Shown one piece after another: positions 106 through 15,330 of a DNA stretch of 15,417 nucleotides. The stretch is taken from the NCBI GenBank assembly GCA_034439715.1, contig JAWXAY010000005.1:1-15417 (forward strand), in the 5' to 3' direction. A program made the translations under genes and the position numbers. Within the stretch, counting starts at the first letter, position 1, and the number at the start of each line of letters is the position of its first letter. The notes beneath the pieces were generated by a model. That model made no database searches, was not told the origin of the DNA, and saw only the letters and a program-made list of their open reading frames with translations. This stretch comes from Pseudomonadota bacterium (lineage in GTDB: Bacteria; Bdellovibrionota; Bdellovibrionia; Bdellovibrionales; SG-bin7).

Positions 106-274
106 TTTAGACTTATTTCAAAATCCACTAAAAACGGAGGGAGACTTCATATGTAAACCCCTCAAGCACCTGTCCAAACTCTGTACACCGCTGTCGTTAG
201 TGCAGAACCGTAGGCGCGCGCGCGAGGCATGCCATTTGCAAAAGTATAGCTATAAGAAAAGGCGGGAGAACAAT

Positions 275-817
275 ATGAATCCAATCAGGGTAACTAAAAT
301 ATCCATTATCCTAGCAGCCGCAATAATGACATTCCAGGGTTGCTCAAAAGTCGCCTTTGAAAGAGTTAACTCAACACTCACTAAAAGTGGCAATAATACC
401 AACAGAGACTATGATATTGCTATCGATGCGAACCGGGATCCGCAGAAATATATCGAACTATGTGAGCGACAGAGATTGTCCTCAAGTGGTGTCAATGTTG
501 CGGCTGGCAGCGATTTAACGAATTTAGTAGGAAACATCATTATAAGAAGCGAAGACTTAGGGAACATTAAAAATATCACTGGCAATCTCATTATTGTTAA
601 TTCAGGGGATACTGGCAATATTGATTCCATAGATCTTACTTTTGGCAATACCATTATTTGCGGTTTTGATATCGGATCCATCAACAAGCACACTGGTAAC
701 CTGGTTGTCGTTGGTGGTGATATCGGCAGTCTCGCAAATTCCACGGGCAATGTGGTTGTCATCGGGGGAACCATCGGCACTATATCGGGAAATACAGGAA
801 ATCTCGTTACTAGGTAA
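275..817 (+). CDS. Putative lipoprotein with about 5-6 tandem 17-aa beta-solenoid repeats
   Basis: ATG at 275 follows GGGAG (264-268), so it is preferred over GTG 200. Signal MNPIRVTKISIILAAAIMTFQG-C has a lipobox-like Cys. The C-terminal half repeats GN-[hydrophobic]4-xx-D/T-IG-x-I/L-xxx-T. Confidence 0.75.
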   Translation: MNPIRVTKISIILAAAIMTFQGCSKVAFERVNSTLTKSGNNTNRDYDIAIDANRDPQKYIELCERQRLSSSGVNVAAGSDLTNLVGNIIIRSEDLGNIKNITGNLIIVNSGDTGNIDSIDLTFGNTIICGFDIGSINKHTGNLVVVGGDIGSLANSTGNVVVIGGTIGTISGNTGNLVTR

Positions 818-1383: not shown

Positions 1384-2547
1384 ATGAGTCAAGAAAAGTA
1401 CGACTATATTCTAGTTGGCGCTGGTCTTGCCAATGGTATTTTAGCTTTAAAACTTCATGAACAAAAAAAAAGTTTTTTGCTCATTGATGACAAATCATCT
1501 CTTGAGCGTAGCCAAACCTGGTCCTTTCATCAACACGACATTGCTAGAACTGAACATCAATGGCTCACGCCAGTCATAACTAAATCCTGGCCGGCTCATA
1601 CTGTGCGCTTTCCCAAATATCAAAAACAGCTGAATTCTTCGTACCACTCTATTACTTCAAATAACCTTTTCGCTCATATTCAGCGTCAACTGCCAGCCAA
1701 AAATATTTTGTTAAATGAAAAATTAACGAAACTTTCTCGAGACTCGGTTGTGCTTTCTGACGGCCAGACTATCAAAACTAAAAATGTCATTGATGGTCGT
1801 GGGATTTTACCTTCTGACATTAAACCTTGTGGCTACCAAAAGTTTTTGGGTTTAGATATCAAATTGAAGAAACCTCACAATCTAAGCTTTCCTATTCTTA
1901 TGGACGCCACAGTGCCTCAAACTGATGGTTACCGATTCATTTATGTTTTGCCGTGGAATGAAACTACGCTTCTGGTTGAAGACACCTATTACAGCAACAC
2001 TTCAATACTAAACAGCGCTCACATTGAGTGTGAAATTCAAAACTATATAGAGAAAAATTGGGGCCCCAGCGAAAGTGTTTTGCGGAGAGAACAAGCAGCA
2101 CTAGCTATTCCACTTACAAAAAATCTGTTTAGTTACTGGGCAAAATCTGAGGGAATTTCTTTGATTGGTTTAAGAGGAGGATTTTTTCATCCAACGACGG
2201 GATATTCATTGCCATTGGCTCTGCAAATTGCTGAGATCATAACCAAAGCCCCAAACAAAGAGGGCCCGCAGCTTTTTGATCTCTTAAGGAATGAATCTAT
2301 GAAATGGCAAAAGAAATGTCAGTTTTATCTTTTTTTGAATCGCATGATGTTTGGCGCAGCCCTACCCCATGAGAGAATTAATATTTTTGAAAGATTTTAC
2401 CAATTACCAGAACCACTGATTCAGCGTTTTTACGCGAGCCGACTCAACAAATTCGATCAAATGCGGATATTGATGGGGCGTCCTCCGGTGCCTGTGGTTC
2501 ATGCTATAAAAAGTATATTTAACACCTCCTGGATGGAAGCCCAATAA
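1384..2547 (+). CDS. crtY: Lycopene beta-cyclase (CrtY type)
   Basis: 'DYILVGAGLANGILA' dinucleotide motif, plus 'TWSFH', 'QKFLG', 'PILMDATVPQTDGYRFIYVLP', 'LLVEDTYYS', 'GGFFHPTTGYSLP', 'ERFYQLPEPLIQRFYA' and 'GRPPVP'. Confidence 0.96.
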   Translation: MSQEKYDYILVGAGLANGILALKLHEQKKSFLLIDDKSSLERSQTWSFHQHDIARTEHQWLTPVITKSWPAHTVRFPKYQKQLNSSYHSITSNNLFAHIQRQLPAKNILLNEKLTKLSRDSVVLSDGQTIKTKNVIDGRGILPSDIKPCGYQKFLGLDIKLKKPHNLSFPILMDATVPQTDGYRFIYVLPWNETTLLVEDTYYSNTSILNSAHIECEIQNYIEKNWGPSESVLRREQAALAIPLTKNLFSYWAKSEGISLIGLRGGFFHPTTGYSLPLALQIAEIITKAPNKEGPQLFDLLRNESMKWQKKCQFYLFLNRMMFGAALPHERINIFERFYQLPEPLIQRFYASRLNKFDQMRILMGRPPVPVVHAIKSIFNTSWMEAQ

Positions 2548-2549
2548 AG

Positions 2550-3533
2550 ATGTTAACTCCAAAGATTTCCTGGCTGCCAATTTCCTCTCATAAGTTGATG
2601 GAGAAATATTTAAAGCCTTCACTTTTAGGGCCTCTTGAAGAATACCTCAATCGACCAAAAAAAGAAATTCGCAGACAGCTGGTGGAATTAGGATTCAAGT
2701 GGGCGCAAAAAATAAATAAGGGTTCGTTAAAAATTTCAAAAAAGAATCTGAGCGTACTCTGTCAGATTTTGGAAGCCGTGCATGCCGGTTCTTTAATCGT
2801 TGACGATATTCAAGATGGCAGTCCCGTTCGTAGAGGACAGCCCAGCTATCATCGCCTTCATGGACTCCCCTTGGCAATCAATTCGGGAAATTGGCTTTAC
2901 TTTTGGGCCTTTAAAAAGGCCAAAGACCTCTCGCTCTCCAATCCTAGAAAAAATATGATTATCACCGTTTTACTTGATACTTTATTTGAAGGTCACCTTG
3001 GGCAGGCCCTAGATATTGGAACAAAAATAACAGATGTGCCTAGAGATGAAATTGCTAATATTAGCTTTTCTACCATGCGCTTTAAAACAGGAGCTTTGAC
3101 GGGATTAGCACTCTTTAGTGGAGCCATTATTGGCGGCATGGCGCTGAGTAAAGCTCGTAAAGTACTAGAAACGGGACGCGAGTTTGGCTTGCTCTTGCAG
3201 ATCATAGACGATCTCAAAAATTTGAAGCTCTCTAAAAATAAAATTTATGACCCAAAACTTTTTGAAGATCTACGTAATTATCGACCAGGTTACCTGTGGG
3301 CTTTTGCCGCACAAAGGTGTTCAGATAAACAGCTACGCCAACTTGTTAAAGCTACTCATGATATAGAAAACATTTCAAAAATTCGAGATTGGCTAGTTAA
3401 CCTTAATTTTTTTACTAAAGCCCTTAGAGATTTTAAAAAGAAAAAAGACACTCTCTTGGCAGCAACTCCAGAAATGAAAACGGAGCTTCAGAGTTTAATT
3501 TCTCAGTTGGAGCTTGCCTATGAAAAAAGTTAG
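2550..3533 (+). CDS. crtE: Polyprenyl diphosphate synthase, probable GGPP synthase
   Basis: FARM 'SLIVDDIQDGSPVRRG', 'GQALDI', 'KTGAL', and second motif 'QIIDDLKN'. Lies inside the crt operon. Confidence 0.85.
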   Translation: MLTPKISWLPISSHKLMEKYLKPSLLGPLEEYLNRPKKEIRRQLVELGFKWAQKINKGSLKISKKNLSVLCQILEAVHAGSLIVDDIQDGSPVRRGQPSYHRLHGLPLAINSGNWLYFWAFKKAKDLSLSNPRKNMIITVLLDTLFEGHLGQALDIGTKITDVPRDEIANISFSTMRFKTGALTGLALFSGAIIGGMALSKARKVLETGREFGLLLQIIDDLKNLKLSKNKIYDPKLFEDLRNYRPGYLWAFAAQRCSDKQLRQLVKATHDIENISKIRDWLVNLNFFTKALRDFKKKKDTLLAATPEMKTELQSLISQLELAYEKS

Positions 3534-5010
3534 AGCCGCGGTCGTTGGCAGTGGCTTTGGCGGGCTAGCTTTAGCTATACGTTTGCAGTCCCTAGGCTAT
3601 GAAACTTCAATATTTGAAAAACGTGATTTGCCAGGAGGCCGCGCTTACGTTTTTAAAGATAAAGGATTTACATTTGATGCTGGGCCCACGGTTATAACTG
3701 CTCCCGAATGTCTTGAAGAACTTTTCGCTCTTTCTGGAAGAAAAATGTCAGACTATGTGGAAATGATTCCCATCTCCCCGTTTTACCGACTCTACTGGGA
3801 AAGCGGTTATCATTTTGATTATTCAAACGACGATACGGAGCTTAAGCGGCAAATCCTGGCAAAGCACCCACAAGACTGGGATGGCTACCAGCGTTTTATG
3901 AAATACACCAAAGATGTCTTTCGTGAAGGGTATGAAAAATTAGCGCATGTTCCATTTCCTAATTTTTGGAGCATGATAAAAGTAGCTCCGCAGTTGGTTC
4001 AACTTTCTGCCTTTCGCTCAGTTTACTCGATGGTCTCAAAGTATATAAAAGATGAAGAACTTCGCCAGGCCTTCAGTTTTCATTCCTTACTCGTCGGTGG
4101 GAATCCATTTACCAGTTCCTCCATTTATACACTAATTCATTATTTAGAAAGAAATTGGGGAGTTTTTTTTCCTAGAGGCGGCACTGGCGCTTTAGTGCGG
4201 GGGCTCGTAAAACTATTTACTGATCTTGGTGGCAAAATTCACTATAACTCCGAAATTGATGAGATTTTAACTGATGGTCAAAAGGTGATGGGCTTAAGGC
4301 TCAAAAATGGTCACTCCGAACACTTTGATTTAGTCGCAAGTAATGCGGATGTGGCGCACACTTACTCCCAGTTACTCCGCAACGAAAAACAAGTTAAAAA
4401 CACTCGAAAATATATCATGAGTCGCAGTTTTAGCATGTCACTTTTTCTTATCTATTTTGGCACGGATAAAACCTATCCTCATCTCAAACACCACAACGTC
4501 ATGTTTGGCCCGCGCTATAAAGCTTTGCTGGCGGATATTTTTAAAGCAGGAAACCTATCTGATGACTTTTCTCTATACCTACATGCACCTTGTCGGACTG
4601 ACGCTTCGTTAGCACCTGAAGGCTGTGATGCTTTTTATGTTCTTTCTCCCGTTCCTCATTTAGGTAAAAACCCTATGGATTGGAAAAAAGAAGGCCCCGT
4701 TTATGCTGATAAAATTTTAGACTACTTAAGTGCCAGGTACTTGCCAAATCTTAAAAAGCACATCGTTACTCAGCGAATATTTACTCCCGTTGACTTTGAA
4801 ACAGAATTGAATTCTCAGTTTGGCTCAGCTTTTTCATTGGAACCTATCTTGACACAGAGTGCCTATTTTAGAACACAAAATCGCGAGAAAAAAATTAAGG
4901 GTTTATACTTTGTAGGAGCTGGCACTCACCCGGGAGCCGGTGTGCCCGGAGTCGTGAACTCCGCTAAAGCCACAACAGGTGTCATTTTAGCTGACGGGAA
5001 TTTGGCTTGA
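3520..5010 (+). CDS. crtI: Phytoene desaturase
   Basis: 'VVGSGFGGLALAIRLQ', 'GGRAYV...GFTFDAGPTVIT', 'FSFHSLLVGGNPF', 'DFSLYLHAP' and 'LYFVGAGTHPGAGVPGVV'. ATG at 3520 overlaps the end of crtE and has GGAG upstream. Confidence 0.97.
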   Translation: MKKVRAAVVGSGFGGLALAIRLQSLGYETSIFEKRDLPGGRAYVFKDKGFTFDAGPTVITAPECLEELFALSGRKMSDYVEMIPISPFYRLYWESGYHFDYSNDDTELKRQILAKHPQDWDGYQRFMKYTKDVFREGYEKLAHVPFPNFWSMIKVAPQLVQLSAFRSVYSMVSKYIKDEELRQAFSFHSLLVGGNPFTSSSIYTLIHYLERNWGVFFPRGGTGALVRGLVKLFTDLGGKIHYNSEIDEILTDGQKVMGLRLKNGHSEHFDLVASNADVAHTYSQLLRNEKQVKNTRKYIMSRSFSMSLFLIYFGTDKTYPHLKHHNVMFGPRYKALLADIFKAGNLSDDFSLYLHAPCRTDASLAPEGCDAFYVLSPVPHLGKNPMDWKKEGPVYADKILDYLSARYLPNLKKHIVTQRIFTPVDFETELNSQFGSAFSLEPILTQSAYFRTQNREKKIKGLYFVGAGTHPGAGVPGVVNSAKATTGVILADGNLA

Positions 5011-5924
5011 AACAGGGAGCGACACTTGCAGAACAATCTCGCGAAATCATTATGCAAGGCTCAAAAAGTTTTTCTTTAGCGGCGCTGCTACTTGGTCGAG
5101 AAACTCGTGACTCGGCTTTTTTGCTATATCACTGGTGCCGGTACTGCGATGATATGATTGATCAAGCCGAGCCAGGTAAAGCCCACGAAAAATTACAAAT
5201 GTTACGCGAACAAACTATTCAAGCGCTTACTGGCGCCGAAAATTTAGAGCCTGCCTTTCTGGCCTTGTCCCGGGTTGTAAAAAAATATTCTATTCCGCAC
5301 CACTATCCACTGGAGCTTTTGGCAGGTATGGAAATGGATGTTCTGCAGTGTCAGTATAATAGTTTTGCGAACCTCAAACTCTATTGTTATCGCGTGGCCG
5401 GCGTCGTTGGTTTAATGATGGCGCATATCTTAGGTGTGAGTCATGAGAAGGCGCTAAGGAACGCCTGTGATATGGGAATAGCTATGCAGCTAACAAATAT
5501 TGCGCGCGATATATTAACAGATGCACAGATTAACCGAATTTACCTGCCAGTAGAGTGGCTCAAAGAAGTTGGCATTCCCCCACTGGCGAATGCCATCATG
5601 AGCCCAAAGCACCGCGCTCCCCTATTTCTAATAGTCAAAAAACTATTAAACGAAGCTGAAGTCTTTTATCAATCAGGTGATCGAGGTCTGCCGTTTTTGG
5701 CTACGCAACCGAGACTCGCCATCATGTCGGCACGCTATATTTATTCTGATATTGGCCAATTGATTTTATATCGAAAGTCATTTGCCTGGGACACCCGAAC
5801 TTTTGTTCCACTCTATCGAAAGATTTTTTGGATTTCTTTGAGTCTGGTGCGCTTAACCTGGCAAGGCTTATTTAAACCCCGATTTCAAGCTACGCCAATT
5901 ACCCAAGTATGGAGGTTCCAATGA
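5007..5924 (+). CDS. crtB: Phytoene synthase
   Basis: 'GSKSFSLAA', 'LYHWCRYCDDMID', 'YCYRVAGVVGLMM' and 'GIAMQLTNIARDILTDAQINRIYLP'. TTG start overlaps the crtI TGA (TTGA). Confidence 0.96.
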   Translation: MKQGATLAEQSREIIMQGSKSFSLAALLLGRETRDSAFLLYHWCRYCDDMIDQAEPGKAHEKLQMLREQTIQALTGAENLEPAFLALSRVVKKYSIPHHYPLELLAGMEMDVLQCQYNSFANLKLYCYRVAGVVGLMMAHILGVSHEKALRNACDMGIAMQLTNIARDILTDAQINRIYLPVEWLKEVGIPPLANAIMSPKHRAPLFLIVKKLLNEAEVFYQSGDRGLPFLATQPRLAIMSARYIYSDIGQLILYRKSFAWDTRTFVPLYRKIFWISLSLVRLTWQGLFKPRFQATPITQVWRFQ

Positions 5925-6523
5925 ACCGAGCCACCTCCTTTTGGCAGGATACTGTAACTTACGCTTGTCAAATCAAGCAGTTTTCTAGAACCGACTGGAA
6001 TGTCTATTTTGCTTGGGTAGGACTAATGCTGGGCCTTTTGTTTTCGGTCTTTGGTTTTATTCTAGTGGGTTATTTTCATGGAGCTGACTTTCCACCTTAC
6101 GTTTGGAATGTACCGCTGGGCACGATTATCTTTGTGGGCGCTATTGCTTTTGATACTATTGGCCACCGAACAGCGTATAAAGAAGAACTCAAAAAGGGTG
6201 AAGAGTTAGTTCATCACATAACTATTTTTGCCGGCATAACCAGTGTTTTGGCACTATGTCTTTGTTATACCTGGCCCAGTTTTTTTAGAATTCCCGCCAT
6301 CAGTTTAATTGCGCTGAGTATTTTGTATAGCATTATTGACGAAGCTCTACACTGGCATCGTTATCTCAATAAACACTCCGATCGGGTAGAAATGTGGAGT
6401 CATTTTTTTATCTTTTTAGGTCACACAATCATGGTCCTCTCTTGGTATTATTGGTTTGATCAGGGGTACCCAGGAGTAGCCACAACAGTCGAGGCCATGA
6501 AACAAATGGGAATTTTTTTCTAA
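5921..6523 (+). CDS. Uncharacterised integral membrane protein (about 5 TM) with a duplicated Asp/His/Glu motif
   Basis: ATG at 5921 overlaps the crtB stop (ATGA), with GGAGG at 5911-5915. Five hydrophobic segments. Motifs DTIGH...EELVH and DEALH...EMWSH. Confidence 0.85.
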   Translation: MNRATSFWQDTVTYACQIKQFSRTDWNVYFAWVGLMLGLLFSVFGFILVGYFHGADFPPYVWNVPLGTIIFVGAIAFDTIGHRTAYKEELKKGEELVHHITIFAGITSVLALCLCYTWPSFFRIPAISLIALSILYSIIDEALHWHRYLNKHSDRVEMWSHFFIFLGHTIMVLSWYYWFDQGYPGVATTVEAMKQMGIFF

Positions 6524-6524
6524 G

Positions 6525-7253
6525 ATGAGCATTGAGGCACTTAGCGTCACAAGTGTTGGGCTGTATGTAATAATACTTTTTCGTTATTTTTTAATTGCGG
6601 GTTTTTTTTATTGGTTTTTTTGGATGAGGCGCCGACCTCAATGGGAGACTAGAAAACTTCAAGATACCACTCCCTCTAAAAAACTTATTTGGAGCGAAAT
6701 CCGTTGGTCTGTGATCACTTCATTTTTCTTTGCTATCCCCGGCGCAATTATGATTGAATCCTGGAAGCTCGGTGGCACAAAAATTTATACCGATTATGCG
6801 AAGTACGGTTGGATCTATCTCTTTTTAAGTATTTTTATCTATATGTTTTTACATGACACTTATTTTTATTGGACTCATAGACTTATGCACCGGCCAAAAA
6901 TCTTTCGTATTTTTCACCAAGTTCATCATGAATCACAAAATCCCACTCCTTGGGCGGCCTTTTCATTTCATCCTTATGAAGCCATCATTGAGGCCCTGAT
7001 ATTGCCCCTTTTAACTTTTTTCGTACCAATTCATATTGGTGCGTTAATCTTTGTACTGACCGCTATGACCATATTTGGGGTCACTAATCACACAGGTTAT
7101 GAGATTTTTTCGGCAAAGTGGATGCAAGGTTTATGGGGAAAACAAATGATTACGGCTACTCATCACAATCAGCACCATAAAAATTATTTCTGCAATTTTG
7201 GCTTGTACTTTCGGTTTTGGGATAAATTCATGCAGACAGATAAAATGACTTAG
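6525..7253 (+). CDS. crtG: Sterol desaturase/fatty acid hydroxylase family di-iron enzyme, probable carotenoid 2,2'-beta-ring hydroxylase (CrtG-like)
   Basis: His boxes HDTYFYWTHRLMH, HQVHH, NH and HHNQHH, plus 'NFGLYFRFWDK'. Segments 'RYFL', 'ESWKLGGTKIY', 'VPIH' and 'ITATHH' match CrtG as I recall it from Brevundimonas. Last gene of the crt operon. Confidence 0.75.
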   Translation: MSIEALSVTSVGLYVIILFRYFLIAGFFYWFFWMRRRPQWETRKLQDTTPSKKLIWSEIRWSVITSFFFAIPGAIMIESWKLGGTKIYTDYAKYGWIYLFLSIFIYMFLHDTYFYWTHRLMHRPKIFRIFHQVHHESQNPTPWAAFSFHPYEAIIEALILPLLTFFVPIHIGALIFVLTAMTIFGVTNHTGYEIFSAKWMQGLWGKQMITATHHNQHHKNYFCNFGLYFRFWDKFMQTDKMT

Positions 7254-7362: not shown

Positions 7363-8175
7363 ATGATTAAATTTTTATATGTTTTGTTGGTATGGATGCC
7401 ATTTAGTCAATTGGCAAATGCGGCGGATGTTCCCCAGAAATTAGTAATCACGGGCTCTAGTACAGTGGCACCGCTAATAAGTGAAATTGCCAAAGCTTTT
7501 GAAGCTAGTAACCAAGGAGTAAGAATTGACGTGCAAAGTGGTGGCTCTTCACGAGGAATTTCAGATGCCCGCCAGAGTATGAGCGATATTGGTATGATTT
7601 CGCGTGATTTAAAACCTGAAGAAAATGACTTAAAAGGCTTCGCCATCGCCAAAGACGGCATTTGCGTTATCCTTCATAAAAACAATCCCATCACGAAGCT
7701 TGAAGACAGTCAAATTGTCGACATCTACACTGGTAAAATTAAAAATTGGCAGGAACTTGGTGGCAAAGATGCACCAATTACGGTTGTCAACAAAGCCGAA
7801 GGGCGCTCTACACTCGAGCTGTTTGTTAATTATTTTAAATTGAAGAATTCTGACATAAAACCCCATGTTATTATCGGTGATAACGAGCAAGGCGTTAAAA
7901 CCGTAGCTGGTAATGCGAACGCTATAGGTTATGTTTCGATCGGAACTGCCGAGTATGATTCCGCACAGGGTGTCGCCATAAAACTTTTACCCATCGGTGG
8001 CACCAGTGCTTCTATAGAAAACGTAAAAAATGGCAAGTTCCCACTTTCTCGTAATCTGCTCTTGGTGACCACAACCGAACCAAATGGATTAAAAAAGAAG
8101 TTTATTGAATTTGCGCGCTCAAAAGAGGTTATAGGCATTGTTAAGCAACAGTATCTTGTCCCCATTACGAAATGA
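7363..8175 (+). CDS. pstS: Phosphate ABC transporter substrate-binding protein
   Basis: Sec signal (ANA-A), 'ITGSSTVAP', 'GGSSRG', 'DIGMISRDLK', 'IYTGKIKNWQELGG' and 'FPLSRNL'. RBS AGAAGG. Confidence 0.92.
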   Translation: MIKFLYVLLVWMPFSQLANAADVPQKLVITGSSTVAPLISEIAKAFEASNQGVRIDVQSGGSSRGISDARQSMSDIGMISRDLKPEENDLKGFAIAKDGICVILHKNNPITKLEDSQIVDIYTGKIKNWQELGGKDAPITVVNKAEGRSTLELFVNYFKLKNSDIKPHVIIGDNEQGVKTVAGNANAIGYVSIGTAEYDSAQGVAIKLLPIGGTSASIENVKNGKFPLSRNLLLVTTTEPNGLKKKFIEFARSKEVIGIVKQQYLVPITK

Positions 8176-9007
8176 GTTAGCTCTAGTTTGGCTACTTCGC
8201 ATCTTGGCACTAATGGCAGGAGCTTTGGTCCTGCTGATTTTTGCTTTTTTACTCAATGAATCTTTGCCCATCTTGGGGCTTGTCGGTTTGTCGGCTTTTT
8301 TTTCTGATCCCTCTTGGCATCCTATGGAGGGATTTTTTAATCTCACCTCAATGCTTTTGGGAACTCTTTACGCCACGGCTGGGTCGGTTCTCTTGGCGGC
8401 TCCCCTGGGAATATTATCGGCAATTTTTTGCCGCTTTTATGCTCCCACTCATGTTGCTAGGATTTTTCGCAACCTGATGGAGTCACTTTCTGGAGTGCCC
8501 TCTGTCGTGTTTGGTTTTTGGGGATTGACGGTACTTGTACCTTTGGTGAACCAGATTCATCCCCCTGGGCCCAGTCTATTTGCTGGAATTTCAATATTAA
8601 CAATGATGATTTTACCCACTATGGCTATGGCAGCCGATGCTAGTTTTGCAAGCGTTCCACAAAACTATTTACGAGGGGCACAGGCTCTCGGCCTTTCTAA
8701 ATCAGCAACGCTATTAGGAGTAGTTCTCCCGGCTGCAAAAGCTGGACTACTATCAGGTCTCATTTTACAAAGCGGTCGCGCCATTGGCGAAACTATGGCT
8801 CTTCTTATGGTTTGTGGCAACGTGGTTCAAACACCAAAAAATATATTTGATCCAATCAGGACACTTACGACCAACATTGCTCTAGAAATGGCTTACGCCA
8901 TGGGAAGCCACCGATCGGCACTTTTTGTAAGTGGCCTTATTTTAATGTTGTTTATTGTTGTCCTACTTATAGCAGCCGAAGGCATCAATCGTGTTCCAAA
9001 GAGATAG
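8138..9007 (+). CDS. pstC: Phosphate ABC transporter permease PstC (start uncertain: TTG 8138 or TTG 8156)
   Basis: 'GVPSVVFGFWG', 'MILPT', an EAA-like loop 'VPQNYLRGAQALG', 'GRAIGETMALLMVCGN', 'RTLTTNIALEM' and 'HRSALF'. Confidence 0.93.
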   Translation: MLSNSILSPLRNELALVWLLRILALMAGALVLLIFAFLLNESLPILGLVGLSAFFSDPSWHPMEGFFNLTSMLLGTLYATAGSVLLAAPLGILSAIFCRFYAPTHVARIFRNLMESLSGVPSVVFGFWGLTVLVPLVNQIHPPGPSLFAGISILTMMILPTMAMAADASFASVPQNYLRGAQALGLSKSATLLGVVLPAAKAGLLSGLILQSGRAIGETMALLMVCGNVVQTPKNIFDPIRTLTTNIALEMAYAMGSHRSALFVSGLILMLFIVVLLIAAEGINRVPKR

Positions 9008-9830
9008 GCTATTCACTTTAATAGTTTGGTCGGCAGCATTGTTAGTTGTGCTTATCTTTGCCTCCTTCATTGGGAATATTATTTATTATGGACTAAAAAA
9101 TTTTTCGTTTCTTTATCTTTGGAGCAATCCTATAAATACCGGACGAGAAGGCGGCATATTTCCAATTATAATTTCTACACTACTCATTCTTTTGGTTTGC
9201 ATGACTGTCGCTATCCCCTTGAGTCTGTGTACGGCGATATTTTTAACGGAATTTACCTCTCAAGAAAATATTTTAGCGAGATTTATTCGACGAAGTATTG
9301 ACGTTTTATCGGGAGTTCCCTCGATAGTGTTCGGGCTTTTCGGCAATGCTTTCTTTTCTGTTAAACTAGGTCTCGGCTTCTCAATTTTGTCGGGAGGACT
9401 TACCTTGGCCTGCATGGTTTTACCAATTATGATTCGCTTGACCCAAGAGGGCTTGCGGGCGGTCCCGCCAGAGTATAGTCTCTCGGGTTCAGCTCTTGGT
9501 ATTTCAAGATCTCAAATTTTATTACATCTTCTTTTACCGGCGGCGGCGCCTAGTGTGATCGTCGGCCTTGTATTGGGGGTTGGCCGGGCATTGGCCGAGA
9601 CTGCCGCCTTGGTTTTTACCAGCGGTTATGTCGATCGACTGCCCCAGTCTTTGTGGGATTCGGGTCGGGCCTTATCTGTTCATATTTATGATTTATCAAT
9701 GAACGTTCCCGGCGGAGAGACCAGTGCTTACAAGTCAGCATTTACCTTACTAATTCTTGTTTTCTTTATTAACTCGATTACCACTCAACTCACAAAACTA
9801 TGGTTACAGAAGAGGATTATTTTACAATGA
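8991..9830 (+). CDS. pstA: Phosphate ABC transporter permease PstA
   Basis: 'GGIFPIIISTL', 'LSGVPSIVFGLFG', 'GGLTLACMVLP' and 'GRALAETAALVFT'. GTG start overlaps pstC. Confidence 0.93.
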   Translation: MFQRDRLFTLIVWSAALLVVLIFASFIGNIIYYGLKNFSFLYLWSNPINTGREGGIFPIIISTLLILLVCMTVAIPLSLCTAIFLTEFTSQENILARFIRRSIDVLSGVPSIVFGLFGNAFFSVKLGLGFSILSGGLTLACMVLPIMIRLTQEGLRAVPPEYSLSGSALGISRSQILLHLLLPAAAPSVIVGLVLGVGRALAETAALVFTSGYVDRLPQSLWDSGRALSVHIYDLSMNVPGGETSAYKSAFTLLILVFFINSITTQLTKLWLQKRIILQ

Positions 9831-10660
9831 ATAAAGAACTACCCGAGTTTTATCCCTCGTTACCCTTAAAAATAAGACCCGACTGTTGCGAACCCAGTCC
9901 TCACTTTCAAATCGAAAATCTGAGTCTGAAATACGGCAGTAAATTTGCTTTTAGAAATATAAAACTCACCCTCAACAGAGGTTGTATTACGGCGTTGGTC
10001 GGGCCCTCGGGCTGCGGAAAAACGAGCTTCTTGATGTGTCTTAACCGACTTATTGAGTTGATTCCGGGTGCCTCAGTCACAGGAGAAATATTTTTTGACA
10101 CCCAAGATCTTATGAAAGCGAAAACTCCTGTCATAGAGCTTCGACGTAAAGTAGGGATGATTTTTCAAAAACCAAACCCGTTTCCTCAGACAATTCGGAA
10201 AAATATTGAGTTCCCTTTAAAAGAGCATGGCATTTTAGATCCTATAAAAAGGCGGGAAATTTTAGAAAGAGCCCTCACCGATGTGGGTCTTTGGCAAGAA
10301 GTTAAAGACCGTTTGGAAGCCCCAGCTCTGACCCTTTCCGGAGGACAACAGCAGCGCTTATGTATTGCACGTGCAATAGCGTTAGAACCCGAGGTTCTCT
10401 TAATGGACGAGCCCTGCAGCTCGCTCGATCCTATTTCGAGCGGCGTTGTCGAAGATCTCATCGCAAGTCTTCGGCAAAGATTTACTGTTTTGATTGTTAC
10501 CCACAATTTAGCTCAAGCTCGACGGATTGCCGACTATGTGGCTTTTTTCTGGTTAGAAGATGGAGCCGGAAGCTTGATAGAGTCCGGTCCAACAAAACAG
10601 ATCTTTAACGAGCCTCGACATAAGTTAACTGCGGCTTATATCGGTGGGCTTAGAGGTTAA
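9827..10660 (+). CDS. pstB: Phosphate ABC transporter ATP-binding protein
   Basis: Walker A GPSGCGKT, 'VGMIFQKPNPFP', signature LSGGQQQRLCIAR, Walker B LLMDEPCSSLDP, and 'VTHN'. ATG at 9827 overlaps the pstA TGA, with GAGGA upstream. Confidence 0.96.
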   Translation: MNKELPEFYPSLPLKIRPDCCEPSPHFQIENLSLKYGSKFAFRNIKLTLNRGCITALVGPSGCGKTSFLMCLNRLIELIPGASVTGEIFFDTQDLMKAKTPVIELRRKVGMIFQKPNPFPQTIRKNIEFPLKEHGILDPIKRREILERALTDVGLWQEVKDRLEAPALTLSGGQQQRLCIARAIALEPEVLLMDEPCSSLDPISSGVVEDLIASLRQRFTVLIVTHNLAQARRIADYVAFFWLEDGAGSLIESGPTKQIFNEPRHKLTAAYIGGLRG

Positions 10661-11346
10661 TAAGGCGTTGCTAAAAACGGCCAGGTTGCTGGGCCACCGT
10701 AGCTTGTTTGCCCGTTCAACAACTTATGCCCTTGTGAACTATTTCCAGCTGTACCCTGATAACTGACATTGTCTTTAATAGTTCCTCCTGACGGATCTCC
10801 TGCTACTAAATAGCTGAGGGTAATATCTATCACGTCATCTTCAATTTTTCTGCCTCCAGTTAACATGGCCGCCTTGGTACCTCTAACGAGAACAAAGTCC
10901 CCATTATAAGCGGCAGTGCCTGGTGGAATGGCCTTACTGGTATCGATTCGCATAACGTCTGGCAAAAAGCCCGTAACAACTTCACTATTAAAACCATCAC
11001 CAAAAGTATTGGTCCCCTCTAGGGAATCCACTAAATCAAGAGCAAAGCTTGCTTCTGTTAAAACTTCAAGTACCGCAGGATTATCAGTGGCAAGATCCAG
11101 CGTCGGCGGAATGCTGTTAAAAGCCACTAATTTATTATTACTGACTAATAAGCCTTCATTAACTGCGGGCCTACCTAGCCTTTCAATTTGCACATATGTG
11201 GTTTCGGCTACCACAGTTGTATTTAAAGCATTTTGTAATGATGATTCCAGTGGTTTAAATTTACCGCAATTCTGAACTCCATAAAGCGTTCCTGATATGG
11301 CGATAACCGCGATTGTTAAATTGGTATAAAACCTTTTATTTTTCAT
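10657..11346 (-). CDS. DUF4331-like lipoprotein (C-terminal-half motifs)
   Basis: Signal ending 'LYGVQN-C'. Motifs 'YVQIERLGRPAVNEGL', 'LPDVMRID', 'GGRKIEDDVIDITL' and 'WPFLATP'. RBS AAGGAG. Confidence 0.8.
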   Translation of the reverse strand: MKNKRFYTNLTIAVIAISGTLYGVQNCGKFKPLESSLQNALNTTVVAETTYVQIERLGRPAVNEGLLVSNNKLVAFNSIPPTLDLATDNPAVLEVLTEASFALDLVDSLEGTNTFGDGFNSEVVTGFLPDVMRIDTSKAIPPGTAAYNGDFVLVRGTKAAMLTGGRKIEDDVIDITLSYLVAGDPSGGTIKDNVSYQGTAGNSSQGHKLLNGQTSYGGPATWPFLATPY

Positions 11347-11364
11347 ATTTATCTCCTTTTGGAC

Positions 11365-12114
11365 TTATTTTGGTACCGAAATAGTCGACCATACGTCAAA
11401 TATGGGTTCGCGAGCATTACTTTGCAGAAAATCTATCGGTACTCGAACGACTATAGTGTTGACGTTGTAGAAGCGAGTAAAATCTGACGCCAGAGCAGGA
11501 GCAAGAAAACCGATAAAGGCTTTGGTCGCAATAGCTTGAGCGCGCACTTTAAAAAACTGATTGACGTCAAAAAAGAAAGGGTCTTCTCGAAGTCCCGCAA
11601 AAACTGTGAGGCGATGATTATCGATAGCAATTTGGTTATTGGTGTTTCTATTGGCCTTCGAATCACCAATTGGAGTCGTTAAAAGTAAAGCCCCATCTGG
11701 AGATTTATCAAGTTGCACCATTTGTCCATCTCTGATTGCCGTCAGAGTAAAGCTCTGGCGTCCGCTGGCCAATGGAGCAGAGAATTTAAAACGCAAAATT
11801 ACGTCGTCTTTACCAACTGGCTTGTCAGTCTTATTGTTAGCGGGGACTCTGGTGATGTGAAAGTCATATAGCGCTTGGCTACTAAAAAAGTACTGCTGGT
11901 TTGGTAAAGACCTGGGGTTAGTATTCATGGTCAGAATCAAGTTGCCTTGATCGGCGGGATTACCTGTTTGATTGTCCTCTCTAAATACATAAAGGTCTGT
12001 GAGGTTCAAACTCCTGCCCTTGAGATCAATTTCACCGTCATCATGATCGGAAGCTTTAACTTGAAGCGAAAAAATAACGGCGATAGCCGTTAAACAGAAA
12101 AGATTTTTAAACAT
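11365..12114 (-). CDS. DUF4331-like secreted protein (N-terminal-half motifs)
   Basis: Signal VKA-S followed by 'SDHDDGE'. Motifs 'LTDLYVF', 'VFAGLREDPFFFD', 'DFTRFYNVNTIVVRVP' and 'VWSTIS'. RBS AAGGAG. Confidence 0.85.
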   Translation of the reverse strand: MFKNLFCLTAIAVIFSLQVKASDHDDGEIDLKGRSLNLTDLYVFREDNQTGNPADQGNLILTMNTNPRSLPNQQYFFSSQALYDFHITRVPANNKTDKPVGKDDVILRFKFSAPLASGRQSFTLTAIRDGQMVQLDKSPDGALLLTTPIGDSKANRNTNNQIAIDNHRLTVFAGLREDPFFFDVNQFFKVRAQAIATKAFIGFLAPALASDFTRFYNVNTIVVRVPIDFLQSNAREPIFDVWSTISVPK

Positions 12115-12140
12115 GTTAACTCCTTTAGCTAAGATTTAGT

Positions 12141-12169
12141 TTAACGAGTACTTAAATAAAGTATATACT
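12141..12169 (+). promoter_or_regulatory. Putative sigma70 promoter (TTAACG-N17-TATACT) for the lspA-fusion/hupE operon
   Basis: -35 at 12141-12146 and -10 at 12164-12169. The -10 lies inside the palindrome AGTATATACT (12160-12169). Confidence 0.5.
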
Positions 12170-12193
12170 CTACATGGTGCGTCTTTTTTGACT

Positions 12194-13642
12194 ATGGAAA
12201 ATAAGAAACAAGTATTCAAAACTATTATTTTGCCACTGCTGATTGTTTTCGCAAGCGACCGTATTGCTAAAATTCTCTCTTTAGGTCTAGTCAATACCAC
12301 AGAATTCGGCCCTTTTATTTTTCAGTTACATAAAAACCATGGTCTCATGCTAGGCACGCTCGCTGATAGTCCTGAGGAATTCAGAACCATCGCGCTTTCA
12401 ACATTTGGTGCCTTTCTATTTAGCGTTTTCGTGGCGCTTCAATATTTCATTCCGGCGACCTTACCCCGCTTGCGACTAGGTTTATCGATATTTATGGGTG
12501 GAATTTTAGGTAATATTTTTGACCGTGTGCAATTTGGTTACGTTATTGATTCTGTCGTGGTGCAGTTCGCTCAGTTTCATACGGGAATATTTAATGTCGC
12601 TGATGCTTGGCAGTGGCTTGGCGTCGGCCTAATACTTTGGGATCTCGTGACACGCGGACAACTGCTCTGGCCTGAAAATGAAAAACGTGCTGGCAAGTGG
12701 ATAGATCCCGCCTTCCAGGCACGCTATAGCGCTATTCTTTTGTCCATCGGTTTTACGTTTACTGTCATTATGGGAATTTTCACTTTCACCTATCTAAAAT
12801 TTGTAGTGCAAAAATTACCTGTGGGCTTAATCTCTCAGGCTATCATAGCTAATTTTGGTCTGATGTTTCTTTCAATTGCGGGAATATTTTTTTTACTTTT
12901 GATTTTCATTGGGCGCCTACTCTCTCATCGTATTGCCGGCCCTATTTATGCTTTTGAAATTTTTCTCGAAAATATTCTGATGGGTCAAGTGGGTGATTTT
13001 AAACTCCGCGAGCAGGATGAGTTCAAACGTTTTGAAAAACTGGCCAACAAATTTCAAGATTTTTTTCATAAACAATTAAATCTTCCCCTGCCTCCGCTGC
13101 GACAGAATATGTTGGCCCCCCAATTTTTGGGACAAACCTTTTTTGGTCAATCACTAAACCTGTCGACCTTAAAAGGTTCAAAAGTCTGGCTGTGTTTTTT
13201 TCGCTATGCTACCTGCCCCCTTTGCGTCACTTATATTGACGAAGTATATTCTCAACATAAAAACGAAATCAAAGACGCCGCTCTTAAAGTGATTATGGTG
13301 TTCGATTCTCCTTCTGAAAATTTCTTAAAGAATGTGACGGGTAATACAAAAAAACTCTTGGAATCCCTTCCCTTCCCTCTCGTTGCCGATCCCGACAAAC
13401 AAATTTATAAACTTTATCGTACCCAAAAAACAGTGATAGGTTTTTTTCATCCACTGGCCTTTAAGCAGTTTCTGCTGTCAATTAAAAGAGGTTTTAAGCA
13501 GTTTTGGATAGACGGCGAATTAGGCCAAAAACCCGCCCACTTTTTATTGAACAAAGATGGAACCATAAATACTGTATATTATGGATCCCATATTGCCGAC
13601 CAAATTCCATGGGAACAAGTAAAGTCGTTTTTGGAAGCCTAA
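12194..13642 (+). CDS. Fusion protein: signal peptidase II (peptidase A8) + 2 TM/HAMP-like linker + peroxiredoxin-like (AhpC/TSA) CxxC domain
   Basis: LspA motifs 'SDRIAK', 'NHGLMLG', 'GGILGNIFDR..FGYVID' and 'FNVAD'. Two more TM helices, then 'SHRIAGPIYAFE...FKLREQDEFKRFEKLAN'. Then 'APQF...LKGSKVWLCFFRYATCPLC...FPLVADPDKQIYKLY...PAHFLLNKDGTI..VYYG'. Start is ATG 12194 or TTG 12188. Confidence 0.88.
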   Translation: MENKKQVFKTIILPLLIVFASDRIAKILSLGLVNTTEFGPFIFQLHKNHGLMLGTLADSPEEFRTIALSTFGAFLFSVFVALQYFIPATLPRLRLGLSIFMGGILGNIFDRVQFGYVIDSVVVQFAQFHTGIFNVADAWQWLGVGLILWDLVTRGQLLWPENEKRAGKWIDPAFQARYSAILLSIGFTFTVIMGIFTFTYLKFVVQKLPVGLISQAIIANFGLMFLSIAGIFFLLLIFIGRLLSHRIAGPIYAFEIFLENILMGQVGDFKLREQDEFKRFEKLANKFQDFFHKQLNLPLPPLRQNMLAPQFLGQTFFGQSLNLSTLKGSKVWLCFFRYATCPLCVTYIDEVYSQHKNEIKDAALKVIMVFDSPSENFLKNVTGNTKKLLESLPFPLVADPDKQIYKLYRTQKTVIGFFHPLAFKQFLLSIKRGFKQFWIDGELGQKPAHFLLNKDGTINTVYYGSHIADQIPWEQVKSFLEA

Positions 13643-13645
13643 CCT

Positions 13646-14698
13646 ATGTTACCTTTTATCAAATATATTATTTTTATTGTGTTATTGGCAGCGAAGGGTT
13701 TTGCCCACAGCCTCGATATCACCCACGGTAACATAAATATTAAGGAGGGCTTAGTCGTCATAAGTGTTGGCTACAATCTCCATGCACAAATTTTGGAGAA
13801 GCCGGCAAGCGAAGTTACCTCCACTGATATTTTAAAACTTCCTATCAAAAAATTAAAAGTTAAAACCTTAGACCTCGAAAATGCCTTTCGCGAGCGATTT
13901 AAGCTGATGGCACATGATGGCGTCCCAATCAATTATCAGCTTTTTTTTGATTTCGAGAGGCTTTCGGAGACCACATTTTTAGTTCCTGTTTCGCTCAGTT
14001 TCTCCCCTAAGGGGGATTGGACGATAGAAACGAAGAGTATTTTTGGTACACTAATTCTCGTTTATCAAGAACAGCAATTTTTGATACCAGGCGGATCAAG
14101 AGGAGAAACGATTTATCAGCAAAAGAAACTTAGCTCTGCTTCTCGCACTGCTCTAAATTATACAAAGCTTGGTTTTTTGCATATATTGCCTCGGGGTTTT
14201 GATCACGTGCTTTTTATTTTTACACTATTTTTATTAATTCCGAAATTCAAGCCCTTACTGTGGCAAGTGACCTTCTTTACCGTAGCCCACACCCTATCGC
14301 TGGCACTGGCATCAATGGGGTATGTGAGCTTACCTTCGAAATTTATAGAAGCTGTTATCGCACTGTCGATCGTCTACACAGCACTAGAAAACATCTTTGC
14401 AAAACACCTTGGCACTAGACGCCTCGTTTTGGTTTTTATTTTTGGACTTCTGCACGGGCTAGGCTTTGCTGGAGTCCTATCAGAAATTGGACTCCCCGAA
14501 AATCAATTTTTTATTTCACTGCTGGGATTTAATGTCGGAGTTGAATTAGGTCAAATTTCTGTTTTGGCTGTGGCCTTTATTTGCCTGGGATGGTGTATTG
14601 ATAGACCCTGGTTTCGTAAACGCGTGGTTATTCCTGCCTCAGTACTGATAGGCCTAACTGGCGTTTATTGGACGGTGGCGAGAATTAATGGGGCTTAG
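13646..14698 (+). CDS. HupE/UreJ-family membrane protein with an N-terminal extracytoplasmic domain
   Basis: Signal 'GFA-H' leaves an N-terminal His. C-terminal motifs 'LGFLHILPRGFDHVLF', 'FTVAHTLSL', 'IEAVIALSI', 'FGLLHGLGFA' and 'GFNVGVELGQ'. Starts 3 bp after the fusion gene's stop. Confidence 0.92.
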   Translation: MLPFIKYIIFIVLLAAKGFAHSLDITHGNINIKEGLVVISVGYNLHAQILEKPASEVTSTDILKLPIKKLKVKTLDLENAFRERFKLMAHDGVPINYQLFFDFERLSETTFLVPVSLSFSPKGDWTIETKSIFGTLILVYQEQQFLIPGGSRGETIYQQKKLSSASRTALNYTKLGFLHILPRGFDHVLFIFTLFLLIPKFKPLLWQVTFFTVAHTLSLALASMGYVSLPSKFIEAVIALSIVYTALENIFAKHLGTRRLVLVFIFGLLHGLGFAGVLSEIGLPENQFFISLLGFNVGVELGQISVLAVAFICLGWCIDRPWFRKRVVIPASVLIGLTGVYWTVARINGA

Positions 14699-15330
14699 AA
14701 AAACCGTGAGGTTTTATAATTAGAGTTTTTAAAGTCCATTAGTAAAGAAATATAGGGATGAACAAATCCCAGATTTACGACTTTTTCAAGCGTATATTTG
14801 GCAGCAACAATGTCCTGATTTTCTCTCTGTGCCTTTGCCAAGTACATAAGTGTGATGGGATGCGGCCGACTCATGGCCTCTTCTTCGGCCAAGCGCCTCG
14901 CCTCCAAAAGAGAACCTTGCTCCCCATTATCCAGTAAGAGTTTCACAAGCTGCATGCGGTGACCGTATTTTCCGACTAATAAGTCTTCTCGCAGATTTTT
15001 TTCGACTTCACTTAAAAGAAGCTTAGATTTTTCGATCTGATTTGAGATTTTATACACGAACGCAAGTTCAATAATGATATCAGGATCGGCATAATAAGAT
15101 AGCGCTTCGATAAGTTTTTGTGTCGCCTGAGTCAAATTATTCTTAAGCACAAAATACTGAGCACTGAGACGTAACGCCATACTGTCATCAGGACGAATTC
15201 GTAGGGCTTCTGCTAAAACATAACGGGCTTCTTCTAAATACCCAAAACGTAAATAGAGACGCGCTAAAACCGAGCGCGTCCAAGAAGCCCCTTCGGCATC
15301 GCCTACGTCCTCTATCTTTGTGGTGTTCAC
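14695..15330 (-). CDS. Tetratricopeptide-repeat protein, probably N-terminally truncated
   Basis: TPR-like units 'LARLYLRFGYLEEARYVLAEALRIRPDD' and 'LAKAQRENQDIVAAKYTLEKVVNLG'. GTG start, in-frame TAA at 15346-15348, no signal peptide. Confidence 0.75.
   Translation of the reverse strand: MNTTKIEDVGDAEGASWTRSVLARLYLRFGYLEEARYVLAEALRIRPDDSMALRLSAQYFVLKNNLTQATQKLIEALSYYADPDIIIELAFVYKISNQIEKSKLLLSEVEKNLREDLLVGKYGHRMQLVKLLLDNGEQGSLLEARRLAEEEAMSRPHPITLMYLAKAQRENQDIVAAKYTLEKVVNLGFVHPYISLLMDFKNSNYKTSRFF

Follow-up and report, generated by a model that had tools for sequence, protein, structure and literature searches.

Introduction

Signal peptidase II (LspA), which cleaves diacylglyceryl-prolipoproteins and is inhibited by globomycin, is regarded as one general enzyme that stands alone, and as a target for antibiotics. 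Other processing enzymes are encoded beside proteins that carry private variants of a sorting signal, as with sortase and LPXTG, exosortase and PEP-CTERM, or rhombosortase and GlyGly-CTERM, and the prepilin leader peptidase PilD is joined to a second enzyme activity; we know of no such pairing of enzyme and signal for signal peptidase II. Here we analyze an open reading frame (ORF) in a 15,417-nucleotide stretch of a Bdellovibrionota genome (assembly GCA_034439715.1, contig JAWXAY010000005.1), hereafter the window, which is the entire contig C5 of that genome. The ORF fuses an LspA domain to two additional transmembrane (TM) helices, a HAMP-like linker and a thioredoxin-fold redoxin, and it lies close to a predicted lipoprotein with an unusual lipobox.

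In HAMP linkers, helix 1 has a Pro near its beginning, the connector is marked by a Gly and helix 2 starts with two acidic residues. The CxxC proteins ResA and TlpA act outside the cytoplasm. Extra LspA copies are described in a review (PMC8689077), which places lspA3 and lspA4 of Myxococcus xanthus in the myxovirescin cluster. Our literature searches returned nothing on the fused architecture or on a dedicated signal peptidase II. An earlier reading made from the DNA letters alone (the sequence-only reading) had held that no protein with this architecture was described; this stands for the literature, in that no paper was found, but relatives are present in public databases, and one source automatically names one of them 'lipoprotein signal peptidase/peroxiredoxin'. 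What is new here is the adjacency and co-variation of the redoxin-fused LspA with a [VLA]QNC lipobox.

Results

A single open reading frame joins LspA, a stalk and a redoxin

The fused gene and its parts are as follows.

12194..13642, + strand: whole fused ORF, 482 amino acids (aa), LspA followed by two TM helices, a helix-connector-helix and a CxxC redoxin (ORF list, Pfam, AlphaFold2 model)
12194..12667, + strand: LspA (Peptidase_A8) domain, residues 1-158, four TM helices and beta-cradle (Pfam, alignment to solved chains, Foldseek)
12548-12550, + strand: codon of catalytic D119 of 'VID' (alignment to solved LspA)
12602-12604, + strand: codon of catalytic D137 of 'FNVAD' (alignment to solved LspA)
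12668..12706, + strand: conserved Lys/Arg-rich (K/R-rich) cytoplasmic loop between TM4 and TM5, LLWPENEKRAGKWIDP (alignment, charge count)
12707..12811, + strand: extra helix TM5 (residues 172-206), which contributes to the interface of the predicted dimer (hydropathy, AlphaFold2, dimer prediction)
12824..12979, + strand: TM6, unbroken into the first linker helix, residues 211-262, motif LSHRIAGPIYAFE (AlphaFold2, alignment, dimer prediction)
12980..13078, + strand: HAMP-like part, comprising the connector (residues 263-278) and linker helix 2 (279-295) and bearing DEF at 275-277 (AlphaFold2, alignment, Foldseek)
13079..13639, + strand: thioredoxin-fold redoxin domain, residues 296-482 (Pfam, NCBIfam, Foldseek, alignments)
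13214-13225, + strand: C341-P-L-C344, the CxxC of the redoxin

The frame starts at an ATG at 12194 and is open throughout to the stop at 13640-13642; an alternative TTG start lies two codons 5' of the ATG, at 12188. The sequence-only reading had proposed one ORF with three modules, and this was borne out by the single open frame, by the Pfam matches to Peptidase_A8 and AhpC-TSA and by the AlphaFold2 model of the fused protein (predicted local distance difference test, pLDDT, 93.8; predicted template modelling score, pTM, 0.75). The codons that it had given for D119, D137 and C341-P-L-C344 were also correct.

No stop or frameshift separates the domains, and contigs from three further runs match the region with no other letters and no gaps: X4 (11306-13585), X5 (12161-13419) and X6 (11431-13714), the last of which spans the whole fused ORF. 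Two metagenome contigs, L112 and L113, encode proteins 100% identical to the fused protein over residues 1-482 and 1-463, respectively. All of the identical contigs derive from microbial-mat metagenomes of one year, possibly from a single sampling campaign. Because the matching contigs are free of indels, and fused relatives recur in one clade, we rejected an assembly or frameshift artefact and a chimera as the origin of the fusion.

A hydropathy scan and the AlphaFold2 model agree on six TM helices, four belonging to LspA and two extra, and the charge count places the K/R-rich loops on the N-terminal side of the membrane. Since the protein has six TM helices, and its N-terminus is taken to lie inside as in solved LspA, the redoxin is predicted to be cytoplasmic. 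The topology anticipated earlier from the DNA therefore holds as a prediction.

The LspA domain is predicted to be active and is distinct from the housekeeping enzyme

Residues 16-152 match Pfam Peptidase_A8 (PF01252) at 64.1 bits (cut-off 25). In alignments with the solved LspA chains 6ryo, 9emz and 5dir, D119 falls on the VVDF motif and D137 on the FNLAD/FNIAD motif; counting rows that have a residue at the column, the two are kept in 21 of 21 and 22 of 22 members of the fused subfamily, in agreement with the intact Asp dyad seen earlier; N107, N134 and A136 are likewise conserved. Foldseek superimposes the LspA part on 5dir_C with a TM-score of 0.80 on the target and a root-mean-square deviation of 2.5 over 144 columns. 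With dyad and fold both kept, the fused protein is predicted to be a catalytically active signal peptidase II, which, taken jointly with the dedicated role proposed below, we regard as about evenly balanced.

The lspA models of NCBIfam match the fused protein only below threshold, the equivalog TIGR00077 giving 42 bits against a cut-off of 73.95. Three Peptidase_A8 genes are present in the window's genome, which is 95.7% complete. The best-scoring (138.9 bits) is a separate housekeeping lspA of canonical form, 174 aa long and located in an ileS-lspA-lgt-lgt operon on contig C39. The third gene (302 aa) encodes LspA, two TM helices and the same linker without the redoxin. Given the canonical operon copy and the sub-cut-off TIGR00077 score, the fused gene, as judged from its sequence, encodes a non-housekeeping signal peptidase II.

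Lipoproteins with a QNC lipobox are encoded beside the fused genes

Two genes, the halves of a split DUF4331 protein, lie next to the fused gene on the opposite strand.

11365..12114, - strand: N-terminal half of DUF4331, secreted, divergent from the fused gene (signal peptidase I type signal, ...SLQVKA-SDHDDGE)
10657..11346, - strand: C-terminal half of DUF4331 (DUF4331-C), predicted lipoprotein and candidate cognate substrate (signal and family analysis)
11266-11277, - strand: lipobox V-Q-N-C of DUF4331-C (signal ...GTLYGVQNC-G)

The sequence-only reading had raised the possibility that the enzyme serves specifically to process the lipoprotein encoded divergently from it. We keep the idea, but the directly divergent gene has a signal of the signal peptidase I type and does not encode a lipoprotein; the lipoprotein is the next gene, DUF4331-C.

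A lipoprotein with a [VLA]QNC lipobox is found within two genes of the fused gene at 9 of 13 distinct fused loci. The remaining four (L116, L121, L122 and L123) begin inside the fused gene and lack the upstream flank. The nine neighbours are as follows.

Window: DUF4331-C, signal end LYGVQNCG
G013, L114 and L115: DUF4331-C, signal end LLFVLQNCG
L117: DUF4331-C, signal end VMFGVQNCG
L004: 672-aa protein, signal end LLYVAQNCG
L118: 799-aa protein, signal end ILYIAQNCK
L119 and L120: 423- and 422-aa proteins, signal end FFLVQNCG

These proteins form three families with unrelated mature parts, namely DUF4331-C (5 loci), the 672/799-aa proteins (2 loci) and the 422/423-aa proteins (2 loci). When the 422/423-aa family was compared with DUF4331-C by BLAST, the signal peptide alone was shared (residues 8-33 versus 4-29, E 4.6e-4). 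As a control, QNC occurs in none of 436 neighbour ORFs at 79 loci encoding the short form, which has LspA, two TM helices and the stalk but no redoxin. The lipobox of DUF4331-C is VQNC or LQNC in all five clusters that include a fused gene. DUF4331 clusters without a fused gene occur in 11 other genomes of the phylum, 9 of them split and 2 unsplit, and the lipoboxes of the 9 split clusters are mostly canonical (LTGC, FAGC, LANC, VVSC, TLRC, FTGC, LSSC, IAGC and LTSC). Within the window's genome, [FYW]x[VLAI]QNC is found in one signal peptide, that of DUF4331-C.

These observations are consistent with a dimeric, substrate-dedicated signal peptidase II that processes the adjacent lipoprotein, an explanation that we consider as probable as its opposite, and we infer that the neighbouring lipoprotein is the substrate. 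The fused enzyme would remove the signal peptide from a single cognate lipoprotein whose gene lies alongside, which here would be DUF4331-C, part of an envelope cluster with HupE_UreJ_2 and TPR proteins, and would recognize it through the unusual signal ending [FY]-x-[VLA]-Q-N-C.

Several points weigh against a dedicated enzyme. The [FY]x[VLA]QNC motif was defined after the neighbours had been inspected, and the uniqueness of the DUF4331-C signal in its genome is thus post hoc. The five DUF4331-C proteins beside fused genes form one clade (98/96), so that their lipobox switch counts as a single event and, with the two other families, the data comprise three independent associations and not nine. 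Asn at position -1 is common in the window's genome (38 of 334 candidate lipoproteins) and therefore cannot, by itself, demand a special enzyme. All lipoprotein calls come from a custom regular expression applied to first-start-codon ORFs. The fused proteins, at ~36-40% identity, have diverged much faster than the neighbouring mature DUF4331-C (79% between the window and L117), which would be odd for a closely co-evolving pair, and a cytoplasmic redoxin cannot reach a periplasmic substrate. Finally, dependence of a wider [FY]QNC class on the LspA paralog with two extra TM helices was unsupported in a crude test on ten hand-picked genomes. The pattern FQNC was found 128 times versus 55 for reversed-pattern controls in five genomes with the paralog (8 versus 7 in G105), and 89 times versus 49 in five genomes without a paralog match (31 versus 8 in G010).

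Two styles of lipobox coexist in the window's genome (an example lies at window positions 200-817), L-x-[GAS]-C and Asn at -1. FQNC is the commonest four-residue motif (14 cases), followed by YQNC, FNNC and YNNC; as a DNA pattern it occurs 35 times in this genome versus 9 and 13 times for permuted controls. Separately, the ~36% identity between the fused proteins of the window and L117 would imply either very unequal rates or replacement of the enzyme gene within the cluster.

The extra helices and linker are predicted to form a HAMP-like dimerizing stalk

The two added TM helices lead into a helix-connector-helix whose connector is 16 residues long, and the family alignment shows R165, W169 and Q175 to be conserved around the TM4-TM5 loop. 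A separate model of residues 165-297 gave the same helix-connector-helix (pLDDT 91.1), and in both independent models it sits directly after TM6, as the HAMP layout of ~50 residues requires. The linker family shares the motif LSHRIAGPIYAFE...G...LR..DEF..LE, of which G, P, F, E, R, D and E are invariant in 71 sequences.

The HAMP-like character ascribed to the segment by the sequence-only reading survives as a structural resemblance, seen in the helix-connector-helix and in weak Foldseek rows, but no sequence test detects HAMP. Pfam HAMP (PF00672) does not match the whole fused protein at E<=1 or residues 198-306 alone at E<=10, and HAMP is absent from the 25 families listed for 111 members (64 families were matched, and a match in a single member is possible). 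A profile search of PDB sequences with the linker family found no HAMP chain. Foldseek with the linker segment returned nothing at E<=0.001; its top row was a TM-HAMP model of WalK (9a5d_A, E 0.19, probability 0.98), a weak match, and the other weak rows included Mcp TM-HAMP models and, at rank 10, the Af1503 HAMP 2y21_K (E 5.9). VIA-align in wide mode recovered only generic helical hairpins.

When two copies were predicted together, the interface score ipSAE was 0.46, versus 0.00 for the best control; in calibration, 20 of 30 proteins solved as same-chain pairs attained the mark used, as did 1 of 23 single-chain structures. The partner pLDDT was 72, and contacts agreed between runs to at least 94%. 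The predicted interface is symmetric and has heptad-like spacing (residues 174-208, 217-236, 243-262 and 276-295). It follows TM5, TM6 and both linker helices, and it names no residue of the LspA or redoxin domain. These models predict a homodimer formed through TM5, TM6 and the stalk. Based on the dimer prediction and the helix layout, yet with no sequence match to HAMP, we call the linker a putative HAMP-like dimerizing stalk and not a member of the Pfam HAMP family.

The redoxin has an active site of ResA/TlpA type

The C-terminal domain matches Pfam AhpC-TSA (PF00578; residues 308-459, 53 bits against a cut-off of 26) and Pfam Redoxin (residues 318-408, 32 bits). Its best NCBIfam match is NF040769, 'SelL-related redox protein', which at 52 bits falls below the cut-off of 120; a stand-alone relative of the redoxin, P0103, reaches 81 bits. 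Foldseek matched peroxiredoxins and ResA about equally, with hits to AhpC2 (5ovq, E 2.3e-8) and Bcp.

The active site reads R337-Y-A-T-C341-P-L-C344, that is, RxxxCxxC. Aligned with ResA (3c71), TCPLC falls on WCPHC and QKPAHFLLN on PLPTTFLIN, which places P447 on the cis-Pro loop. In alignments with peroxiredoxins, whose motif is PxxxTxxC, R337 takes the place of the Pro and C341 that of the Thr, and the protein thus lacks that motif. Arg and Cys occupy these two positions in 44 of 46 aligned redoxin rows, the other two having Pro and Thr and being ordinary peroxiredoxin-like proteins. The replacement of Pro by Arg and of Thr by Cys makes a peroxidatic mechanism unlikely. The term 'peroxiredoxin-like' used earlier accordingly fits the fold and the AhpC-TSA match, but not the active site, which by sequence is of the ResA/TlpA type (CxxC with cis-Pro). 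We infer that the redoxin is a cytoplasmic regulatory or accessory thiol module and not a peroxidase.

Stand-alone relatives of the redoxin are 171-200 aa long and begin directly with the fold, without a signal peptide. A k-mer search recovered 2 such short relatives and a full HMMER search many. Of the 14 matching genomes among 401 searched from the phylum, 12 contain stand-alone relatives, and the sole recurring neighbour, a TetR-looking regulator cluster at 10 of 66 loci, is uninformative. The window's genome holds no second copy of the fused gene's redoxin at E<=0.1.

The main point of the fusion might instead be redox-gated maturation, a possibility also raised by the sequence-only reading, in which a dithiol/disulfide switch of the CxxC acts from the inside outwards, via the stalk and TM5/TM6, to toggle LspA. 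This is compatible with a dedicated substrate and differs from it in emphasis. In its favour, R337, C341, C344 and the cis-Pro P447 never vary across the 26 fused rows. The redoxin directly follows the stalk, which is continuous with TM6, at the predicted dimer axis, and one member of the same redoxin family, P0115, is fused to a Ser/Thr protein kinase, another signalling context. Gating would, moreover, be tolerable only in a non-essential, dedicated peptidase, as we take the fused enzyme to be. Against it, the stalk occurs without a C-terminal domain in most members (79 of 80 kept genome loci, 283-378 aa), which shows that it needs none, and other lineages attach a methyltransferase or Peptidase_S74, which are not obvious sensors. 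On balance we regard gating as the chief purpose of the fusion as unlikely.

The fused gene lies in a DUF4331, HupE_UreJ_2 and TPR cluster

Three further features of the window lie near the fused gene.

13646..14698, + strand: HupE_UreJ_2 membrane protein, starting 3 nt past the stop of the fused ORF
14695..15330, - strand: TPR protein belonging to the cluster, in frame over its C-terminal 211 aa only (446 aa in G013)
12141..12169, + strand: promoter-like site TTAACG-17-TATACT, a consensus match only, in the 79-bp divergent intergenic region

Given the 3-nt gap, HupE_UreJ_2 is probably co-transcribed with the fused gene. Promoter-like sites number 15 in the region, versus 10.1 +/- 3.4 when it is shuffled. 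The TPR frame is preceded closely by a stop, and the contig ends 87 bases on; either the gene is interrupted or its reading suffers from the end of the contig.

The whole DUF4331, HupE_UreJ_2 and TPR set recurs beside the fused gene in G013 and L115, and parts of it elsewhere: both DUF4331 halves in L114 and L117, and HupE_UreJ_2 with TPR in L121. It does not recur at the fused loci L004, L118, L119 and L120. DUF4331 is encoded as two neighbouring ORFs, both with an export signal of their own (of the signal peptidase I type before SDHDDGE in the N-terminal half, of a lipoprotein in the C-terminal half), in the window, L099, L114, L115, L117, L206-L208 and L210-L215, and is unsplit in two genomes (L205 and L209). 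Literature searches found no paper on DUF4331; the family has no solved relative, and an Atlas search gave DUF4331 clusters alone.

The HupE_UreJ_2 gene bears on a second alternative, namely that the fusion merely tethers two partners in the Rosetta-stone sense: the redoxin would be an independent, membrane-proximal thiol reductase or metal-handling partner, for example of HupE_UreJ_2, and LspA a dimeric anchor or redundant paralog. The proximity of the two genes in the window, their adjacency in G013 and L115, and a stand-alone redoxin gene convergent to a HupE_UreJ_2 gene on the metagenome contig L185 all favour this view, as do the commonness of stand-alone cytoplasmic redoxins without signal peptides and weak SCO1/SenC matches in 16 of 111 aligned members. 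However, the fused loci L004, L117, L118, L119 and L120 lack HupE_UreJ_2 in the flanks examined and yet keep the QNC lipoprotein, the invariant catalytic residues of LspA would be superfluous in a mere anchor, and the redoxin is found in none of the 11 fusion-less DUF4331 clusters within the stretch examined. Tethering of this kind appears rather unlikely to us.

Elsewhere in the window, a carotenoid operon (1384-7253, + strand) encodes a lycopene cyclase, a polyprenyl synthase, a phytoene desaturase-like oxidase and a phytoene synthase, together with a membrane protein without assignment and a protein of the fatty-acid-hydroxylase family. The next genes (7363-10660) encode a pst-type phosphate ABC transporter.

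The redoxin is one of several domains attached to a widespread scaffold

Clustered at 50%, the results of an exhaustive HMMER search include about a dozen representatives that carry the fusion at full length, together with fragments. The same architecture is found in L004, from a genome labelled Oligoflexales, in G013, from another family of the phylum, and at the metagenome loci L114-L123; relatives thus do not always encode the redoxin separately. A scan of genome contigs gave 135 relatives, of which 80 were kept, 79 of the short form and 1 fused, and record titles place nearly all scanned relatives in Bdellovibrionales or Pseudobdellovibrionaceae. A tblastn search of 83 loci with the redoxin recovered it solely from L004 and from the stretch of the window itself (L003); the two other hits were at chance level (E 0.11 and 0.41). 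On this result we rejected the idea that short-form relatives have a redoxin encoded separately beside them.

Of the 401 genomes sampled from the phylum, 263 have a match at E<=1e-6 to residues 149-295, which comprise the end of TM4, the two TM helices and the linker, although the weakest matches are perhaps not true members; in two families of the window's order, 53 of 53 and 26 of 27 genomes match. Other domains follow the same scaffold of LspA, two TM helices and stalk: an S-adenosylmethionine (SAM)-methyltransferase in P0038, P0081 and P0123, Peptidase_S74 in P0042, and ~330 residues without family assignment in P0033, P0036 and P0121. In a maximum-likelihood tree of the LspA-to-linker part, 24 of 24 redoxin-fused rows fall into one clade within this family (SH-aLRT 96), and the methyltransferase-fused rows and P0033/36/42 form clades of their own (SH-aLRT 100 each). 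The tree was a quick search with four rows cut short (F_P0017, F_P0022, F_P0028 and S_P0043) and several long branches, and only its starred clades were used. From these separate supported clades it follows that the redoxin was acquired once and that the scaffold gained C-terminal domains at least three times.

Short-form loci have a conserved synteny of their own: in 68 of 80, the downstream gene is convergent and encodes a DnaQ-like exonuclease, and in 32 of 80 a response-regulator gene is found directly upstream; in the window's genome (L002, contig C6) the upstream neighbour looks like a GGDEF-type response regulator. One short-form gene, 41% identical to the query as in Bdellovibrionales records, stands in a record titled as a Streptomyces griseus metagenome-assembled genome (L055), probably a mislabelled or contaminated bin.

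Repeated gains on one scaffold, reminiscent of input-HAMP-output proteins, together with the frequent response-regulator neighbour, would suit a third alternative, in which the LspA-like domain is an input module that reports signal-peptide binding or cleavage through the stalk to a variable cytoplasmic output. We think this improbable: most members have no output domain, Pfam HAMP is not matched, and a redoxin or methyltransferase would be an unusual signalling output. A last alternative is that the fused gene is a paralog conferring resistance to a natural inhibitor of LspA, the role proposed for extra lspA copies in globomycin and myxovirescin producers, which are described in the review cited above (PMC8689077). 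This is very improbable: no biosynthetic genes flank the fused gene, its neighbours being DUF4331, HupE_UreJ_2, TPR, pst and carotenoid genes, and the scaffold is matched in so many genomes of the phylum.

Discussion

The explanation that we prefer is a signal peptidase II dedicated to the adjacent QNC lipoprotein. The enzyme would homodimerize through the two extra TM helices and the HAMP-like four-helix stalk, each protomer would carry a cytoplasmic CxxC thiol-disulfide domain, and this redoxin would couple to the protease through the stalk, either by regulatory thiol switching or in a cytoplasmic accessory role. If this is true, lipoprotein maturation dedicated to one substrate would be seen here for the first time, and the enzyme would offer a handle on how LspA reads lipobox positions -3 to -1 and a tractable HAMP-like stalk acting on an intramembrane enzyme instead of an external sensor. 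DUF4331 gains its first testable lead. A phylum-wide LspA family, dimerized and joined to redox, methyltransferase or other domains, would also change the picture of signal peptidase II as one general, solitary enzyme.

A bolder version, which seems to us quite unlikely, is a private, redox-switched signal peptidase II, specific for [FY]x[VLA]QNC, that cleaves only when the cytoplasmic CxxC changes state and signals through the stalk. Were it correct, maturation of an envelope system (here DUF4331 and HupE_UreJ_2) would be controlled after export and not by transcription, and the scaffold of LspA, two TM helices and stalk would be a general platform coupling lipoprotein processing to diverse cytoplasmic enzymes.

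Comparison with known systems

The proposed dedicated enzyme shares with the housekeeping LspA proteins 5dir, 6ryo and 9emz the Peptidase_A8 family, the four-helix core with beta-cradle, both catalytic Asp residues and other conserved polar residues. Unlike these enzymes, which are ~160-190 aa long and stand alone as solved, it adds two TM helices, a stalk and a redoxin. Like lspA3 and lspA4 of M. xanthus, it is a non-housekeeping LspA within a functional gene cluster; the M. xanthus copies, however, are tied to an antibiotic cluster instead of a cognate lipoprotein bearing a lipobox variant, and we know of no extra domains on them.

The stalk resembles the HAMP linkers of Af1503, chemoreceptors and WalK in its post-TM helix, ~16-residue connector and second helix and in the predicted parallel four-helix dimer, and it shares the Pro, Gly and acidic pair of the HAMP motif. 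It differs from HAMP receptors and kinases in that the fused family has no periplasmic sensor domain, usually no output domain and no Pfam HAMP match. The redoxin shares with ResA and TlpA the thioredoxin fold, the CxxC and a cis-Pro loop that aligns with that of ResA, but unlike them it is predicted to be cytoplasmic. NF040769 is its nearest NCBIfam relative, yet one whose cut-off it does not reach. With the AhpC/TSA and BCP/PrxQ peroxiredoxins it has in common the Pfam AhpC-TSA match and the Foldseek hits to AhpC2 and Bcp, and it departs from them in having Arg for Pro and Cys for Thr in PxxxTxxC.

As a pairing of an enzyme with a private signal, the locus resembles the sortase, exosortase and rhombosortase systems by analogy alone, since those belong to other enzyme families and act on C-terminal and not N-terminal signals. 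The methyltransferase-fused relatives are, like PilD, peptidases joined to a second enzyme.

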